Source: Okeania sp. SIO1H2 (GTDB lineage: Bacteria > Cyanobacteriota > Cyanobacteriia > Cyanobacteriales > Microcoleaceae). Taken from it: a stretch of 64,000 nucleotides of DNA. Below are positions 1 to 61,428 of this stretch, piece after piece (the first letter of the stretch is position 1; every line of letters begins with the position of its first letter). The notes under the pieces were generated by a model that saw nothing but the letters and a program-made list of their open reading frames with translations, was not told where the DNA came from and searched no databases. Position numbers and translations under genes: made by a program. The stretch spans positions 7,773 to 71,772 of the forward strand of contig NZ_JAAHGA010000036.1 in assembly GCF_010672685.1 (NCBI RefSeq), in the 5' to 3' direction.

Positions 1-47
1 TACGAATAGTGGCTATAATGAGACGTTGTAGTTCATCAACTTCTTGA

Positions 48-656
48 ATGATAGAATTAAATAATTCTGGTTTAGCTAAATTTACTGCAACTATTTGTGG
101 TGCAGGTGCTTTAGGAGCAAATATTACTGAAAATTTAGCTCGTTCTGGGTTTAGTAAATTACGGGTTATAGATTGCGATCGCATTGAGGAGGGTAACTTA
201 TCTACTCAACCTTATTATCGTTCTGATATAGGAGCTTTTAAAGTTAAAATTTTGACCAATAGTCTCTATCGTGCTTTAGGAGTAAAAATTGATGGTCAAT
301 CTCAAAAATTAACTGAAGAAAATGCAGGTAAACTATTAGCAAAAAGTGAATTAGTGATTGATACTTTTGATAATAGTATTAGTCGGAGTGCTGTGAAAAA
401 TTATTGTGCTGATGCTAATATTTTTTGTGTTCATGTAGGGTTAGCTTCTGAATATTCAGAGATAATTTGGAATGAAAATTATCGAGTCCCTTCTCCAGTA
501 AATGATGATATTTGTGATTATCCATTAGCGAGAAATTTAGTAATGTTAACTGTTGCTGTTGCTTGTGAAGTTGTAGTGAATTTTGCAGCGACAAAACAGC
601 AGGATAATTTTACTGTGACTTTAGGAGATTTTGCTGTTAGGTCTATAGATTTTTAG
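48..656 (+). CDS. ThiF/MoeB-family E1-like adenylyltransferase (short, 202 aa)
   Basis: Rossmann GxGxxG motif 'ICGAGALGANITENLARSG'. Acidic 'VIDCDRIEEGNLSTQ' corresponds to the ThiF DxD...NLNRQ motif. 'DTFDN' corresponds to the E1 DxxDN motif. The ATG at 48 directly follows a TGA (45-47) that ends an upstream in-frame gene cut off by the window edge. A 53-bp gap separates it from the next gene. Confidence 0.6.
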   Translation: MIELNNSGLAKFTATICGAGALGANITENLARSGFSKLRVIDCDRIEEGNLSTQPYYRSDIGAFKVKILTNSLYRALGVKIDGQSQKLTEENAGKLLAKSELVIDTFDNSISRSAVKNYCADANIFCVHVGLASEYSEIIWNENYRVPSPVNDDICDYPLARNLVMLTVAVACEVVVNFAATKQQDNFTVTLGDFAVRSIDF

Positions 657-709
657 AATTATAAAATTTGCTAACATTTTAATAATTAGGAATTTACCTA
701 ACTTTATAT

Positions 710-2353
710 ATGAATAAAATAGAAATGTTGAATAAAAAGTTAATATTCCCACCTAGAAAAGGAAAAAGTGAAAATGAGGCTTTAGAATGCTCTGAAGCAG
801 TTGTAATTATAGGAGCTAATGGTTCTGGTAAGAGTAGACTTGGTCGTTGGATAGAAGAACACCAAGAAAGTTCTCAAGTGGTTCACAGAATTTCCGCCCA
901 AAGAAATTTAGATTTTTCTGAGTATGTGTCTCTTACAAGTATAGAAAAAGCCAACAATGAGCTATTATTTGGTATAGGTACAATACCTCAAAGCTGGGGA
1001 GAATTACAGACAAAGAAAATACAAAGATGGAAAGCTAATCAGAGACCGGAGTTAAGTGTTACACCTATGCTTGATGATTATGATCAAGTGCTTTCTCTTC
1101 TTTTTGCAAAAGAAAATAATCGAAATAGTGAATATGTCCATCAAGTAAGAGAAATGCAGAGCGAAGGAAATGATAAATCTCCGAAAATTTATGACTCTCC
1201 TATTGATGTAATACAGCGTATTTGGAAAGATATTCTACCTCATAGAAAACTTGTGATTGAAAATGATAAGGTTACTGCTGCTATTTCAAATAGTGATACT
1301 TATCATGGTCGAGAAATGAGTGATGGAGAAAGAGTCGCTTTATATTTAATGGCTCAATGTTTATGCGTACCAAATGACTCTATTTTAATTATAGATGAAC
1401 CAGAAATTCATCTTCATAAGTCATTAATGAATAAGCTTTGGTCAGAAATTGAAGCAGCAAAACCTACTTGTCTATTTATTTATATTACCCACGATCTTGA
1501 CTTTGCGGCCTCTAGAATAGGAGCTAAAAAAATATTAGTTAAAAGCTATGACGGTCAACAATGGGATTGGGATGAAGTACCAGAAAGTGAAAATTTACCA
1601 GAACCAGTGCTTCTTGAAATTTTAGGAAGTAGAAAAAAAATTGTTTTTGTTGAGGGTGATAAAGGCAGCTTAGATTATAAGATTTATTCGGCAATATATC
1701 CAAATTATTTAATAGTGCCTCGTGGAGGTTGTGATAAGGTGATTGAGTCAACAAAAGCAATGCGAGATAATTCAGCATTTCATCACATTAAGGCTTTTGG
1801 TGTTATTGATATGGACTATAGAACTGAATATCAAATAAAAGCTCTCAAAGAATCTGGTATAAAACCTTTGAATGTTGCTGAAATTGAGAATATTTTATGT
1901 GTACCTGAACTACTAGAAATTGTTGCAAATAATCTAGGATTCAACTATGAGGAAATTTATCAGAAAGTTTTAGATTTTGTCATAGATATAATTTCAAAAA
2001 ACTTAGAAGATCAATGTTCAAAGCGTTCATCTGCTGAGATAGAATTCAAATTAAAGATGTTTAATGCAAAGGCTAAGGGAAAAGACGAATTATCTGTAGC
2101 CTTAAAGGATCTTTGTGATTCCATTAATATCAGCGAAATTTATGATAAAAACTTGAAAATATATAATCAAATAATTCAAGAAAAAGATTATAAAAAAGCA
2201 TTATTGTATTACAATAACAAAGGATTATCAAAACTAATTTCAAAGTTTTTTGATGTGCGTGATTATAGTAATCATATTATTAGGCTTTTATCTACTGAAA
2301 ATAGGGAAAAAATTATCTCAGTTTTAAAAGAATATGCTCCAATACTAGATTAG
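710..2353 (+). CDS. Fused ABC-type ATPase (AAA_21-like) and C-terminal DUF4435/TOPRIM-like domain; PARIS AriA-AriB-like or OLD/Gabija-like nuclease
   Basis: Walker A 'GANGSGKS'. ABC signature-like 'SDGERVALYLMAQ'. Walker B/D-loop 'ILIIDEPEIHLH', typical of OLD/AAA_21 ATPases. The C-terminal half has 'IVFVEGDKGSLDYKIY' and 'FGVIDMDYRTE', which are TOPRIM/DUF4435-like Glu and DxD motifs. Confidence 0.6.
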   Translation: MNKIEMLNKKLIFPPRKGKSENEALECSEAVVIIGANGSGKSRLGRWIEEHQESSQVVHRISAQRNLDFSEYVSLTSIEKANNELLFGIGTIPQSWGELQTKKIQRWKANQRPELSVTPMLDDYDQVLSLLFAKENNRNSEYVHQVREMQSEGNDKSPKIYDSPIDVIQRIWKDILPHRKLVIENDKVTAAISNSDTYHGREMSDGERVALYLMAQCLCVPNDSILIIDEPEIHLHKSLMNKLWSEIEAAKPTCLFIYITHDLDFAASRIGAKKILVKSYDGQQWDWDEVPESENLPEPVLLEILGSRKKIVFVEGDKGSLDYKIYSAIYPNYLIVPRGGCDKVIESTKAMRDNSAFHHIKAFGVIDMDYRTEYQIKALKESGIKPLNVAEIENILCVPELLEIVANNLGFNYEEIYQKVLDFVIDIISKNLEDQCSKRSSAEIEFKLKMFNAKAKGKDELSVALKDLCDSINISEIYDKNLKIYNQIIQEKDYKKALLYYNNKGLSKLISKFFDVRDYSNHIIRLLSTENREKIISVLKEYAPILD

Positions 2354-2520
2354 ACATCAAACAGAAGTAAATAATTAGATATCTCCAAAATAAACTCAAA
2401 AAAGATATCGTAGTAATTCAGTCCTGTCATCGTAAAATCTAATGTAGAAAAGCAATCCCAAAAACTATTGGAGATTACTTTCCTATGGCAGTGATTTTAT
2501 ACTAAGTTATCAGTCAAATT

Positions 2521-2636
2521 TGATATATAGCAGTCGAAGGAAAAGTTAGAACAGATAAAAAGCTTAAAACTCAAACAAAGCAATATTCTTCCTTCTTCCC
2601 TCTTCCTTCTTCCTTCTTGCTTCAACAAAAAAAACA
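2521..2636. repeat. Conserved ~65-nt element 'GCAGTCGAAGGAAARGTTAG.ACAGATAAAAAGCTTAAAACTCARACAAAGCAATATT' followed by a (TTCCTTC)n heptamer run; family copy 1 of 4
   Basis: Near-identical copies occur at 46296-46360, 47641-47705 and 61203-61300. All are in the same orientation and each is followed by TTCCTTC-type repeats. Confidence 0.7.
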
Positions 2637-2637
2637 C

Positions 2638-3351
2638 TTAAGCAGCAACCGCTTCTTCATAAGGAACAAAAGATTTCTTCTGCGCTCCACAAATAGGGCA
2701 AGACCAATCTTCAGGAATATCTTCAAATGCTGTACCAGGAGCAATACCAGAGTCAGGGTCGCCAACAACTGGATCGTAAATCATCGAACATACCCGACAG
2801 ATCCATTTACGGGTTGCAGTTTCCTTTCCAGCAGCTTTTTGTTTCGGTGCAACCCCATTCAAACCTTCGAGAGCTTCCGTATATTGATCCGCGTGGTGAT
2901 GCTCAATGCTAGTCAATAAACCAAATTTATGAGTTGCTTGACGGAACATGGAAGCGTGTTCGCGAGACTCTTCCTCTTGCTCCTTAAATTCTGCTGCTGC
3001 GGCACTATCGCGGTCTACCCGTGCTTGCTCGGCAAATTCTGGGTACATAGTTGTATATTCGTAGGTCTCTCCTTCAATTGCTAACTCTAAACAACGAGAA
3101 GCGATCGCTTTTTTCTGCTCTTCAGTCAAAGTAGATGGGTCGTCTACTACTAACTCTGGGTGAAGTAGGCGAAAGTGAGAAAAGGCGTGTTGAGTTTCTT
3201 GGTTAGCTGTTTCCCGGAAAAGTTTGGCTAAATCTGCCATGCCCAATTTCTTGGTTACTTCGGCAAAGAAAAGGTATTTACGGTTAGCCATTGATTCTCC
3301 TCCAAAAGCATCAGACAAGTTTTTGGCGGTGTTAGAGTTGGACAAGTCCAT
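2638..3351 (-). CDS. rbr: Rubrerythrin (ferritin-like diiron domain plus C-terminal rubredoxin-like Cys4)
   Basis: Diiron-site E...ExxH motifs, and C-terminal 'CRVCS...CPICG'. The 237-aa length is typical of rubrerythrin. Confidence 0.85.
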
Positions 3352-3945: not shown

Positions 3946-4250
3946 GCATTGAAGAAGGAAGAAGGAAGAAGAAAGAAGGAAGAAGGAAGAAAGAGGAGAT
4001 ACTAAAAAGTTGACAACCCTCGAATGATACCCAACCAATTCTAGATACCGTGGGTGAGGTTGGGGTATTAAACCCATCAGGGAAAAGATAAATTTGATAG
4101 TGCGAGCATCTTGCTCGCGAATATTTTAGTATCGCTAAAAAAGAAGGAAGAAGAAAGAAGGAAGAAGGAAGAAGGAAGAAAGAATAAGAGAAAAGTGGAT
4201 GGGGATACTAAAAAGTTGCCACGACTCTCGATCACTCCCCAACCAATTGT
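3946..4250. repeat. STRR-like (GAAGGAA)n heptamer arrays flanking a 'GGTGGGGTATTAAACCCATCAGGGAAAAGATAAATTT' element; family copy 1 of 4
   Basis: Two GAAGGAA runs (3946-3995 and 4141-4185) bracket the conserved motif at about 4058-4098. Related motif copies occur at 12204-12240, 27806-27845 and 42290-42322. Confidence 0.7.
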
Positions 4251-4702: not shown

Positions 4703-5012
4703 AAAAGGCGATTAATAATTAATAATTCATAATTAATAATTGCCTCTTATTTTCAAGTAGAAATAATTATTGATGGTTTACTTCCCCTCCTGGGAGTTGC
4801 TATGGGAACATTGCATGCAACGTCCCTACTGCCACTCAAGAAGGAGTTTGAGTACCCATCCATTTTTTCCTTGCTTCCTTCTTCCTTGCTTCCTTCTTCT
4901 TTGCTTCCTTCTTCCTTCTTCCTTCTTCCTTCTGACTTCTTCCTTCTGACTTCTTTCTTCTTCCTTCAAATAAATGCTAGGATTGTTCATAAAACAATTA
5001 ATTTAGAGTGTA

Positions 5013-6912: not shown

Positions 6913-7098
6913 AATTTTATACTTATTTAGAATTTTTATAAATATTATATGAGGAACTTTCCTACGGAATGCTACGCAAATGTTATCAGCTTGTAGGGGC
7001 GAATGGCATTCGCCCATACTTGAGTTTAAATCTCCTTCTAAAAGTTTACTGCTGAAAGCTGAAAGCTGAGTGCTGAAATGCTGACAGCTTTTTTAAAA

Positions 7099-7965
7099 TT
7101 AGCCAATTTCCGCAGTCATACTAATAACTGTTTCCACAGTTTTACCAGGTTCAGCAATTAATAAACTTTCCCCAGTATTCATAGCATTACGAGGTGCAGT
7201 CCAAGGTTCTAAACAATAAAAATCTTTACCTTTGACAGTCCAAAAAACTAGAGTAGAGTAATTACTATCGTAGTTAATAGTTAACTTCAAATTACGACTT
7301 TTATCAGTAACTACTGCTGATTGTTTTGACAAATTAACAAACGCCCAATCAATTTCTTCGGCATTAAAATCAAACTCTCCAGAAAAAGTATTAACAGTTT
7401 GTTCGCCCTTAAGTTTATACTCATTTGAAGGTAAATCAAACTCTAATTGACTCTTATCAGTTACAGCAAAATAAGGATGAATTCCTGTAGCAAATGGCAT
7501 AGGTTTCTGAGACAAATTCGTGTGAGAATATCGCATCTCTAGAGTATTACCCCGCAATATATATGTATAATTCAACTCAAAATTAAATGGATATACTGCC
7601 CGAGTTTCATCACTGCTGCGGAGAGTCACAGTAATACTTGCGCCATTCTCGGTAGACTGTTGTGTAACTTCCCAAGGGAGGGTACGAGCAAAACCATGTT
7701 GCTTGATTTTGTAGCTTTCTCCATCTAACGTATAGGTATCGTCAACCACGTTGCCACAAATAGGGAACAGTAAAGGAATACCACCGCGTACCGAAAGAGT
7801 GGGGTCAGCAAAACGTTCCTTATCAAGATAAAATATTTTTTGGTCTTGAGTACGCCAGTCAGTAATGATGCCACCTCGTTCGGGAACAACAACTACCATA
7901 GACTGAGTAGTTTCATCAGAAAGGATATAGGGTTGATTTTGATTTTGTCCAACATTAGCAGGCAT
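7099..7965 (-). CDS. Aldose 1-epimerase / glucose-6-phosphate 1-epimerase (YeaD-like) family protein
   Basis: 'GGIPLLFPICGN' and 'KQHGFARTLPWEV' are mutarotase-fold motifs. 288 aa. Confidence 0.7.
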   Translation of the reverse strand: MPANVGQNQNQPYILSDETTQSMVVVVPERGGIITDWRTQDQKIFYLDKERFADPTLSVRGGIPLLFPICGNVVDDTYTLDGESYKIKQHGFARTLPWEVTQQSTENGASITVTLRSSDETRAVYPFNFELNYTYILRGNTLEMRYSHTNLSQKPMPFATGIHPYFAVTDKSQLEFDLPSNEYKLKGEQTVNTFSGEFDFNAEEIDWAFVNLSKQSAVVTDKSRNLKLTINYDSNYSTLVFWTVKGKDFYCLEPWTAPRNAMNTGESLLIAEPGKTVETVISMTAEIG

Positions 7966-12065: not shown

Positions 12066-12150
12066 ATCTTCTTGAAGAAGGCAGAAGGCAGAAGGCAGAA
12101 GGCAGAAGGCAGAAGGCAGAAGGCAGAAGGCAGAAGGCAGAAGGCAGAAG
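12066..12150. repeat. (GAAGGCA)n heptanucleotide tandem array (~11 units) followed by a GGGGTATTAAACCC element
   Basis: Perfect heptamer repetition, with the conserved motif at 12204-12240. ORFs 12007..12192 and 12048..12242 are repeat artefacts. Confidence 0.85.
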
Positions 12151-12305
12151 GGAAAATTGTTTGGGGTTAGAATCCCAAACAATTTTAAGCACCCCCGTTG
12201 ACGGTGGGGTATTAAACCCATAAGGGAAAAGATAAATTTCAAATCAGATGAGGAGAACTTTTATTAGAAAAATTTGCTGCTCCTCCGGAAGATGTCTTAG
12301 GAGAA

Positions 12306-32199: not shown

Positions 32200-32638
32200 T
32201 AATAAATGTAACATTATGACAAACATCACAAAAACTTACATATCTACTTCACTCGATCAACACCAAAAAATCACGGTTGGTTGTACCATTAATCACTACC
32301 AAATCAGGAAAAAGAGTGGATGATTAAAATATAGAATTTAAGATTAATCTTAATGCTTCAAATTAACTTACTTCCCGGTGCAATCAACGAAATTATGGCT
32401 TCTGCTGCCAAAAGTGGCTTTCTCACAAAATTAGACTGCTATGGCCTCATGGCTGCTGTATTAGACGATTCTCTAAGCACAGAAGATCGTTCTACTGTTA
32501 AGCGACTTTCATATTTTGTACTCAGAGGATGGGTACGAGTAGAGTAGACATAGAGTTGGCGATCGATACTTTGTTTAAATGTTATGCCTCAACAAATTCA
32601 TCAGGAAATGCTTACCTTCTTCCTTCTTCCTTCTTTTC

Positions 32639-41492: not shown

Positions 41493-42530
41493 GTGTTGGT
41501 AGTGCCTAATTTATCATTTGGCAAAATTGCAAAGTTTTCGGTTTCTATCAGAATAGGAATTTTTATTTTAACATTATTTCTGGGTTGGATACCACTAGCA
41601 GCACCAATATATTTTTTTGGGCGAGATGCAAATTTAGCGAGTATATTGGCGATCGCTCTATTATATATAGAGTTTATTATTTTAGTCCAGTTTTGGGGAA
41701 AGAAAGTTTATCAACAACCACACCTACTACGTCACTACGGTTTAGAAATAAGTAGGGTCAACTTTCAGAATTTTTTTCAAGGTTTAGGAATAGGTTTAGT
41801 TAGTCTGTTTGGTTTTTTTATTTTAGAAACGTTTCTGGGATGGGTAATATGGCAGTCACCTTCAGCAAAGTTACCTCAATTTATTCTGGAAGGTTTATTG
41901 GTATCTGTGGGTATTGGTTTTGCTGAGGAGTTACTATTTCGAGGGTGGTTATTGGATGAGTTGGAGCGAGACTACAAACCAAAAGTAGCTTTGTGGGTAA
42001 GTAGTATTGTGTATGCCTTACTACACTTTATTAAACCAGTTGAGGAAATTTTGCGGATTTGGTTTCAGTTTCCTGGTTTGGTGTTGTTAGGTTTAATCTT
42101 TGTTTGGGCAAAACGTGGATCAGTTGAAGAAGGAAGAAGGAAGAAGGAAGAAGGAAGAAGGCATCCCCCCTTGCCCCCCTTTGAAAGGAAGAAGGAAGAA
42201 GGCATCCCCCCTTGCCCCCCTTTGAAAGGAAGAAGGAAGAAGTGGATGGTGACTCAAAACCCAACTAATTATCAACACCGTGTAGATAGCGGGGTATTAA
42301 ACCCAAAAGAAAAAGATAAATTGACTTATTATCAACAACAATTATTGGGTTTGCCTATTGGTATTCATGCTGGTTTTGTTTGGGGTTATTACATTATTAA
42401 TGTGGGTGGTTTAGTTAAGTATTCTAGTGTAGTTGGAGAGTGGATAGTTGGGATAAATGGTAATCCTTTAGCAGGTGTAATGGGGTGGTTTTTTTTAGGA
42501 GCGATCGCTTTGTTTATTCAGCGAAAGTGA
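41493..42530 (+). CDS. CPBP-family intramembrane metalloprotease (CAAX protease / Abi-like) carrying an in-frame repeat-element insertion
   Basis: Motif 1 'EELLFRGWL', motif 2 'YALLHF' and motif 3 'GIHAGFVWG'. Residues 'VEEGRRKKEEGRRHPPLPPFERKKEEGIPPCPPLKGRRKKWMVTQNPTNYQHRVDSGVLNPKEKDKL' are encoded by (GAAGGAA)n plus the GGGGTATTAAACCC element at 42120-42322. Confidence 0.7.
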   Translation: MLVVPNLSFGKIAKFSVSIRIGIFILTLFLGWIPLAAPIYFFGRDANLASILAIALLYIEFIILVQFWGKKVYQQPHLLRHYGLEISRVNFQNFFQGLGIGLVSLFGFFILETFLGWVIWQSPSAKLPQFILEGLLVSVGIGFAEELLFRGWLLDELERDYKPKVALWVSSIVYALLHFIKPVEEILRIWFQFPGLVLLGLIFVWAKRGSVEEGRRKKEEGRRHPPLPPFERKKEEGIPPCPPLKGRRKKWMVTQNPTNYQHRVDSGVLNPKEKDKLTYYQQQLLGLPIGIHAGFVWGYYIINVGGLVKYSSVVGEWIVGINGNPLAGVMGWFFLGAIALFIQRK

Positions 42531-61124: not shown

Positions 61125-61428
61125 TTAGAGTTCTGAGTTATTAATTTTGATCGGGAATAGTCTTTATAATATAGCATATTACCTATGGCCAAATAAGGTA
61201 TGGCAGTCGAAGGAAAGGGTGCGAACAGATCGAGAGCTTAAAACTCAGACAACACAATATTTTTTCTTTTTCCTTCTTCCTTCTTTACTTCTTCCTTCTT
61301 CTTTCTGCTATAAAGCAAGTCAAAGGTCTTAAACAGACAAAAACTGGCATTAAATCCTAGAATTTGGCATCTGCCAGTCGAAAAATAAGAGTTAAAAATT
61401 AATATTGATTTTGTGAAGAAGTTCAAAG

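Follow-up and report, generated by a model that had tools for sequence, protein, structure and literature searches.

The first 2,353 nucleotides of the DNA analyzed here, a 64,000-nucleotide stretch of Okeania sp. SIO1H2 (contig NZ_JAAHGA010000036.1, positions 7,773 to 71,772; hereafter the window), place a gene for an E1-like protein of the ThiF family directly before a gene for a putative anti-phage nuclease, and raise the question of whether the two belong to one defense system. An initial annotation had joined them, with a further gene cut by the left window edge, into a three-gene defense operon in which the E1-like enzyme partners the nuclease. The two open reading frames (ORFs) are present as described, at 48..656 (202 aa) and 710..2353 (547 aa), co-directional and 53 nt apart. 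Comparison with related loci very probably answers the question in the negative: 710..2353 would encode a self-sufficient, single-polypeptide PARIS abortive-infection protein housed in a variable slot, and the ThiF ORF would be the left flank of that slot, outside the system. A longer contig with the exact window proteins, JAAHGC010000034 (assembly GCA_010672625.1; here L001), adds 7.8 kb of upstream sequence, and a window position equals the L001 position minus 7772.

The 547-aa protein (710..2353, plus strand) matches the PADLOC model of merged AriAB (PDLC02982) with E=4.1e-151 and 502 bits, residues 5-544 covering profile positions 22-565 of 570. Pfam finds AAA_21 (41.5 bits against a cutoff of 27, residues 32-262) and DUF4435 (PF14491; 47.2 bits against a cutoff of 27, residues 309-532, profile positions 2-234 of 238), and the PADLOC AriB model also matches (E=7e-12). 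The layout is an ABC ATPase at approximately residues 1-290 followed by DUF4435/TOPRIM at approximately residues 306-544, the pairing of domains given in the initial annotation. PARIS has been detected by this rule, an AAA_15/AAA_21-type ABC ATPase together with DUF4435 above the Pfam threshold, and merged ariAB has already been published as a single-gene form of the system (Rousset et al. 2022, PMC9122126). Burman et al. 2024 (PMC11464382) divide PARIS into eleven clades, two of which ("merged 1 and 2") consist of merged ariAB, and count PARIS as class 4 among OLD-like systems. The window protein had also been likened to OLD nucleases and Gabija GajA. Class 1 OLD and GajA likewise join an ABC ATPase to a TOPRIM domain in one polypeptide, and the kinship is at superfamily level; the window protein carries DUF4435 and has no match to the OLD-type TOPRIM (PF20469). 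The Old and GajA models match partially (E ~1e-7), GajA itself at E=3.3e-7 over approximately 45 residues compared with 4e-151 for fused AriA-AriB, and the PADLOC GajA, PtuA and ATPase-Toprim models give short, weak matches only. There is no GajB-like helicase partner in the window locus, unlike Gabija. We rejected an OLD or GajA identity and retained that of PARIS.

Residue conservation was read from an alignment of 26 homologs at 43-90% identity. Walker A (GANGSGKS, 812..835, plus strand) holds the invariant residues G35, N37, G38, G40, and K41. The Walker B/D-loop stretch ILIIDEPEIHLH (1382..1417, plus strand) holds D229, E230, P231, E232, H234, L235, and H236, all invariant, and aligns with the Walker B region of solved AriA 8ux9_B. 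The TOPRIM-type acidic residues E315, D322, D367, D369, and E393 (1652..1888, plus strand) are invariant as well and lie inside the DUF4435 and PADLOC AriB matches. The motifs quoted in the initial annotation fall on these invariant columns (K41, D229/E230, E315, D322, D367/D369, and E393). From their order and spacing, not from alignment, the five acidic residues are the putative counterparts of E. coli AriB E26, D30, D88, E90, and E122. A weak profile match links the protein to solved AriA (8ux9/8v45, E=1.2e-4). At E<=1e-5 there are 2431 relatives, each of approximately 530-550 aa, and those named among the best 120 come from cyanobacteria, Bacillus, Alicyclobacillus, Vibrio, Serratia, Gallionella, and Ignavibacteriae, a patchy taxonomic spread that is typical of a mobile defense gene. 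By these sequence criteria, gene 3 encodes PARIS in its merged, full-length version and belongs to the published single-gene form.

The surroundings of the gene were compared in seven contigs, L001 and the six related contigs L003-L008 (five from Okeania and one from a metagenome-assembled genome, MAG), among which L005 is Okeania SIO2C9 and L006 is Okeania SIO1I7. In all seven, the flanks are syntenic at 92-99% identity, with ThiF and a hypothetical gene that we call c1 on the left and a rubrerythrin-Fur-glyoxalase-TPR block on the right. The rubrerythrin gene (2638..3351, minus strand; Pfam Rubrerythrin plus Rubredoxin) opens the right-hand block; it is 97-99% identical at the amino acid level in L003-L008, where the order of the block is kept. 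Between the flanks, blastn of L001 against L003-L008 delimits a variable defense cassette of approximately 1.8 kb (659..2433), DNA shared only by the carriers of merged AriAB. Against contigs with other cargo, homology ends at the ThiF stop codon (657/658) and returns at approximately 2434, or at approximately 2609-2622 in the carriers of an OLD-like gene.

Four kinds of cargo occupy this position. L001 and L006 carry merged AriAB. L005 (8570-11552) has a split AriA of 462 aa and AriB of 305 aa (DUF4435, E=1e-25), and there is no pairwise similarity between this split pair and merged AriAB, so the slot acquired both forms of PARIS independently. L003 (8588-11604) and L008 (8593-11560) encode a minus-strand OLD/GajA-like ABC-ATPase protein (701/822 aa) whose match to the OLD-like TOPRIM PF20469 is sub-threshold (21.3 bits against a cutoff of 23.2) and whose best PADLOC matches are AriA, Old, and GajA. 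L004 (6560-9952) and L007 (801-3539) contain DzbA (Dazbog, E=1e-56) and a 362-aa partner with a weak HEPN-like match. Immediately ahead of its Dazbog-like genes, L004 also retains two pieces of AriAB, 310 nt from the 5′ end and 336 nt from the 3′ end, along with a duplicate of the final ~270 nt of ThiF (L004 6301-7181); one cassette appears to have replaced another here by recombination in the 3′ end of ThiF, leaving this scar. No integrase or prophage backbone was found in the 8-10 kb examined around the slot, and base composition does not set the cassette apart as foreign (25-35% GC within an AT-rich genome). The comparison indicates that the interval from the ThiF stop codon to rubrerythrin is a chromosomal defense slot with interchangeable cargo, of which AriAB is one. 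The P2/P4 hotspots (Rousset et al. 2022) likewise hold differing anti-phage systems at one position with conserved flanks in close relatives; the Okeania slot, unlike them, is flanked by chromosomal cyanobacterial genes (ThiF-family and rubrerythrin).

To see which genes keep company with ThiF, one genome per species was taken, giving 80 ThiF loci that were compared by tblastn and all-ORF clustering; upstream counts refer to the 73 loci for which 1 kb or more of upstream sequence was available, and downstream counts to the 77 with at least 1.8 kb downstream. The gene c1 lies directly upstream of ThiF on the same strand in 62 of 73 cyanobacterial loci, with a median alignment gap of approximately 160 nt. 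AriAB lies downstream in two of 77, the window's own contig and Okeania SIO1I7 (L006), and these two share approximately 95% nucleotide identity over the compared region and identical breakpoints, so both adjacencies represent a single event. The downstream neighbors of ThiF in other genera include an M17 aminopeptidase, DUF924, a peptidoglycan-binding protein, a SpoU methylase, a histidine kinase, a TPS-domain protein and STAND-like proteins. A general defense hotspot downstream of ThiF in other genera was considered and rejected, these neighbors being miscellaneous. From the other side, no ThiF gene stands beside the AriAB homologs in four contexts: Desmonostoc, Microcoleus, cyanobacterium UBA11149, and Vibrio harveyi. 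Over 81 loci, c1 is the sole gene family found recurrently beside ThiF, no scan having been aimed at thiS/thiG or moaD/moaE. The ThiF family itself comprises more than 3000 homologs of approximately 212 aa, 68-75% identical across Oscillatoriales, Nostocales, Chroococcales, and Pleurocapsales. A conserved ThiF gene whose downstream neighbors in other genomes are unrelated is the outcome that the initial annotation itself had named as refuting its proposal. The adjacency of AriAB and ThiF would on these counts be incidental, because the two co-occur at two of 77 loci, ThiF is kept with c1, and AriAB occurs elsewhere without ThiF.

In Vibrio harveyi (L087-L089), the merged AriAB homolog (45% identity) sits within an array of short cassettes separated by repeats of ~30 codons. 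The array is integron-like (chromosomal) in appearance, and TIR-domain and AbiH genes adjoin.

How such a protein might act can be approached from the two-gene PARIS of E. coli B185 (PDB 8ux9, 8v45-8v49), which shares both domains and presumably works on the same principle. There, three AriB subunits are bound by an AriA hexamer; when a phage protein is recognized, in an ATP-dependent step, AriB is freed, dimerizes, and cuts host tRNA-Lys, and AriA K39 (the Walker A lysine), AriA E393, and AriB E26 are essential (Burman et al., PMC11464382). By analogy, the N-terminal ABC ATPase of merged AriAB would be an ATP-dependent sensor of a phage-encoded trigger protein, and the triggered ATPase would license the C-terminal DUF4435/TOPRIM nuclease, with host tRNA cleaved and translation stopped as a result. 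The E. coli system is an AriA6:AriB3 complex with AriB release, and the window protein is one fused chain; covalent joining of both halves makes the release of AriB impossible as an activation step, and merged AriAB may be activated by a conformational or oligomeric switch in its place. With the published merged form, the window protein has in common an AAA_21 ABC ATPase and DUF4435/TOPRIM in one chain of approximately 550 aa, conserved Walker A/B residues and putative acidic TOPRIM residues, surroundings of defense genes, and a patchy spread over cyanobacteria, Firmicutes, and Proteobacteria among the named matches. It differs in being a cyanobacterial (Okeania) member with a predicted function.

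If PARIS is cargo, the constant partner of ThiF deserves attention. The c1 product, approximately 280 aa, is annotated as hypothetical everywhere. The initial annotation had pointed to a ubiquitin-like protein (Ubl), an E2, or a JAB-domain protein as the partner to be sought upstream; what stands there is c1, which has no Pfam or PADLOC family and no Foldseek match at E<=1e-3. It has 896 representative relatives at E<=1e-3 in a library clustered at 50% identity, and P26, D267, and C258, a cysteine near the C-terminus, are invariant. A confident AlphaFold model from a 90-sequence alignment (predicted local distance difference test, pLDDT, 94.7; predicted template modeling score, pTM, 0.78) has an N-terminal helix, beta-barrel modules, a long helix at 179-215 and, toward the C-terminus, a small barrel followed by a last helix. 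An earlier model from 24 close homologs was poor (pLDDT 61) and was not used. Two contexts have distant c1 homologs without a ThiF neighbor, an Armatimonadota MAG and an unassigned metagenome scaffold. The homolog in the Armatimonadota MAG (L090 6001-7218) is 405 aa long, with an N-terminal zinc-ribbon extension, and is followed by genes for a small zinc-ribbon protein, DnaJ, and a MerR-family protein.

The synteny points to c1-ThiF as a conserved cyanobacterial module that lies outside the window save for the truncated ThiF. We found no paper describing the pair in the literature searched. It is conceivable, and we propose it tentatively, that the real novelty of the locus lies here: c1, predicted to be rich in OB-folds, and ThiF would form an undescribed cyanobacterial two-gene system whose 3′ end anchors the Okeania defense-exchange slot, the PARIS gene itself being ordinary. 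Such a system might, for instance, use ATP to modify a protein or RNA that c1 binds. In some Okeania and Dapis genomes there are insertions between c1 and ThiF: a TnpB/Cas12f-like OrfB_IS605 gene in L004 (4056-5327), and a 117-aa 23S-rRNA-IVP gene in L005, L006, L008, and L013 (~7060-7572, minus strand).

The window copy of ThiF departs from the rest of its family. Membership in Pfam ThiF (PF00899, E=4.9e-23) agrees with the initial annotation, as do the GxGxxG and DTFDN motifs; C156 is also retained. The description of a minimal ThiF protein did not stand, its shortness being due to a 703-bp deletion in which the N-terminus was lost. The homologs share an N-terminal MSIFFHEQLYR..M.KL segment that the window protein lacks in alignment, and the first 22 family residues, including the invariant H, E, R, and M, are replaced by 14 unrelated codons, which leaves the E1 adenylation domain incomplete, with the ThiF-derived part being 89..656 of the 48..656 ORF (plus strand). 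The blastn breakpoints place the junction at window 88|89, where L001 7860|7861 corresponds to L006 7320|8024; the absent segment is L006 7321..8023, and the same break is seen against L003, L004, L005, L007, and L008. Lost with the 703 bp were the first 22 ThiF codons and, on the minus strand, the 5′ two-thirds of a 23S-rRNA-IVP gene; the deletion flanks have an imperfect AGCTAAA...TTT microhomology in common. A 3′ remnant of the IVP gene (PF05635 family) persists at 1..88 on the minus strand: L001 7759-7860 can be aligned with L006 7219-7320, where an intact minus-strand IVP gene of 117 aa (Pfam 23S_rRNA_IVP, E=1e-36) has its 3′ end. The opening 14 codons of the ThiF ORF, its ATG at 48 among them, come from the antisense strand of this remnant. 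The alignments indicate that the ORF is a chimera created by the deletion, not a natural short form.

For the remaining 188 ThiF codons, the ratio of non-synonymous to synonymous substitution rates (dN/dS) is 0.17-0.25 against other Okeania copies, with controls at 0.07-0.33. A value within the control range implies that the deletion is recent or that the shortened protein is still useful. The status of a decaying pseudogene, which we considered, is unsupported, there being no excess of non-synonymous change.

Could the deletion be an artifact of assembly, with a true genome arranged c1-IVP-ThiF-AriAB as in Okeania SIO1I7? The source contig comes from a MAG (GCA_010672625.1), the junction falls between short imperfect repeats, and the region is rich in heptamer repeats. 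We nonetheless regard this as unlikely, since the junction is clean and keeps the reading frame open, both flanks are ~95% identical to L006 with no chimeric signal, and the exact 202-aa product is found on two contigs; even if it were true, the conclusion on AriAB and ThiF would be unchanged.

The same deletion bears on the gene thought to precede ThiF. The initial annotation had an upstream gene ending in a TGA directly against the ATG at 48. Such a TGA is indeed there, at 45-47, yet it ends no gene: in L001 its frame is open for merely 28 codons after an in-frame stop, no plus-strand ORF of at least 50 aa ends there, and the short frame is antisense to the IVP remnant. Nor is a left partner gene cut by the window edge, the nearest real upstream gene being c1 (L001 6931..7698), which stops 121 nt short of the ATG and is entirely outside the window. 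The gap between them in L001 is filled with GAAGGAA-type heptamer repeats.

A link between c1-ThiF and immunity could also take another form, in which the pair serves as an immunity-related accessory module, such as a split conjugation system of the Cap2 kind, and its adjacency to AriAB reflects a shared defense island. The slot right after ThiF is filled with defense systems in seven contigs, and the best PADLOC matches of the ThiF ORF are Cap2 E1-E2 models, with partial coverage of the E1 region (E=5e-14); NCBIfam 6A-MBL cap2_3 matches too. No NCBIfam equivalog cutoff is reached by the ORF: the best model, PRK08644 ThiF, scores 87.7 bits against a cutoff of 159, all MoeB, ThiF, and TcdA models fall below cutoff, and the broad Pfam ThiF family alone is matched above threshold. 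The invariant cysteine close to the c1 C-terminus fits a conjugation role, and the pair is duplicated in Microcoleus vaginatus HSN003 (CP031705.1; L022, L050), the two copies lying 3.6 Mb apart. This reading is nevertheless quite improbable. The 65-75% identity across cyanobacterial orders and the stable gene order are unlike those of fast-turnover defense genes, downstream neighbors in other genera are miscellaneous, c1 matches no PADLOC or Pfam family, and its distant homologs do without a ThiF neighbor. The ThiF ORF has a Rossmann-type adenylation domain in common with the E1 proteins of CBASS Cap2 and Bil/Bub; unlike those systems, the window locus has no E2 domain, Ubl, JAB or CD-NTase, and its ThiF gene, conserved on the chromosome and coupled to the gene of an OB-fold protein, does not vary along with the defense cargo.

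Some points weigh against the assignment of 710..2353 to a self-sufficient PARIS protein with ThiF as a mere flank. The solved AriB chain was not reached by phmmer with the C-terminal 250 aa, by the split AriB of L005 or by the full-length profile, pairwise and profile searches failing to extend that far because the window protein has diverged too much from E. coli B185 AriA/AriB, and the residue-level mapping of the TOPRIM center is therefore inferred. The 53-nt spacer between ThiF and AriAB contains no convincing promoter in a promoter/terminator scan, which was itself uninformative, and AriAB may be transcribed by read-through from the ThiF ORF. The truncated ThiF protein may still be made and used, with a dN/dS no higher than in other contigs. 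Lastly, ThiF residue 49 (window 192-194, in "IEERNLSTQ"), an Arg in 113 of 120 homolog clusters, is Gly here and Cys in L006, and is thus changed in both AriAB-carrying Okeania copies; this may be a coincidence or a shared relaxation of constraint.

The co-directional genes with a 53-nt gap and no clear promoter or terminator between them, the recurrence of the arrangement in L006, the partial Cap2 E1-E2 and 6A-MBL cap2_3 matches, and the altered R49 favor a single E1-assisted PARIS operon in which ThiF modifies, activates, or restrains the nuclease, a model that is very improbable and largely refuted already by the co-occurrence counts, given that AriAB stands at two of 77 ThiF loci, both in Okeania and from one event, that the same ThiF precedes unrelated defense cargo in other related contigs, that AriAB homologs elsewhere have no ThiF, that ThiF is conserved with c1 and not with AriAB, that the window copy has lost its conserved N-terminus, that the supposed abutting gene does not exist, and that the locus has no Ubl, E2, or JAB gene.

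Heptamer repeats recur around these genes. In the spacer before rubrerythrin, a tandem repeat of TTCTTCC/GAAGGAA at 2586..2623 was detected by Tandem Repeats Finder (TRF; period 7, 5.4 copies), and the family, searched as a 12-mer, has 45 matches in the window compared with 0.55 expected. Intergenic repeats (GAAGGAA/TTCCTTC, variant GAAGGCA) lie at 2586-2623, 3951-3991, 4141-4188, and 4867-4967, and further ones at 12077-12151, 32615-32633, 42129-42243, and 61272-61305. Upstream of the window they flank c1 (L001 6750-6800 and 7640-7760), and in this genome they run through the 3′ end of the c1 ORF, giving it a spurious "EEGRRK" tail. In form they resemble the short tandemly repeated repetitive (STRR) sequences that occur in filamentous cyanobacteria. 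Farther upstream, L001 339-4117 contains an IS66-family transposase, a helix-turn-helix gene, and fragments of a PatG-like subtilase/cyanobactin protease (a Peptidase_S8 fragment, PatG_D, and PatG_C), which appear to derive from a disrupted cyanobactin-type gene.

For the biology of these organisms, the first consequence is the removal of a false lead: an operon of an E1 and PARIS would have been a new variant, since E1-like enzymes serve some defense systems. What is gained is a cyanobacterial member of the merged PARIS clade and, more modestly, a conserved and uncharacterized c1-ThiF pair that deserves annotation. The delimited chromosomal slot with four alternative cargos could help to mine systems in marine filamentous cyanobacteria.

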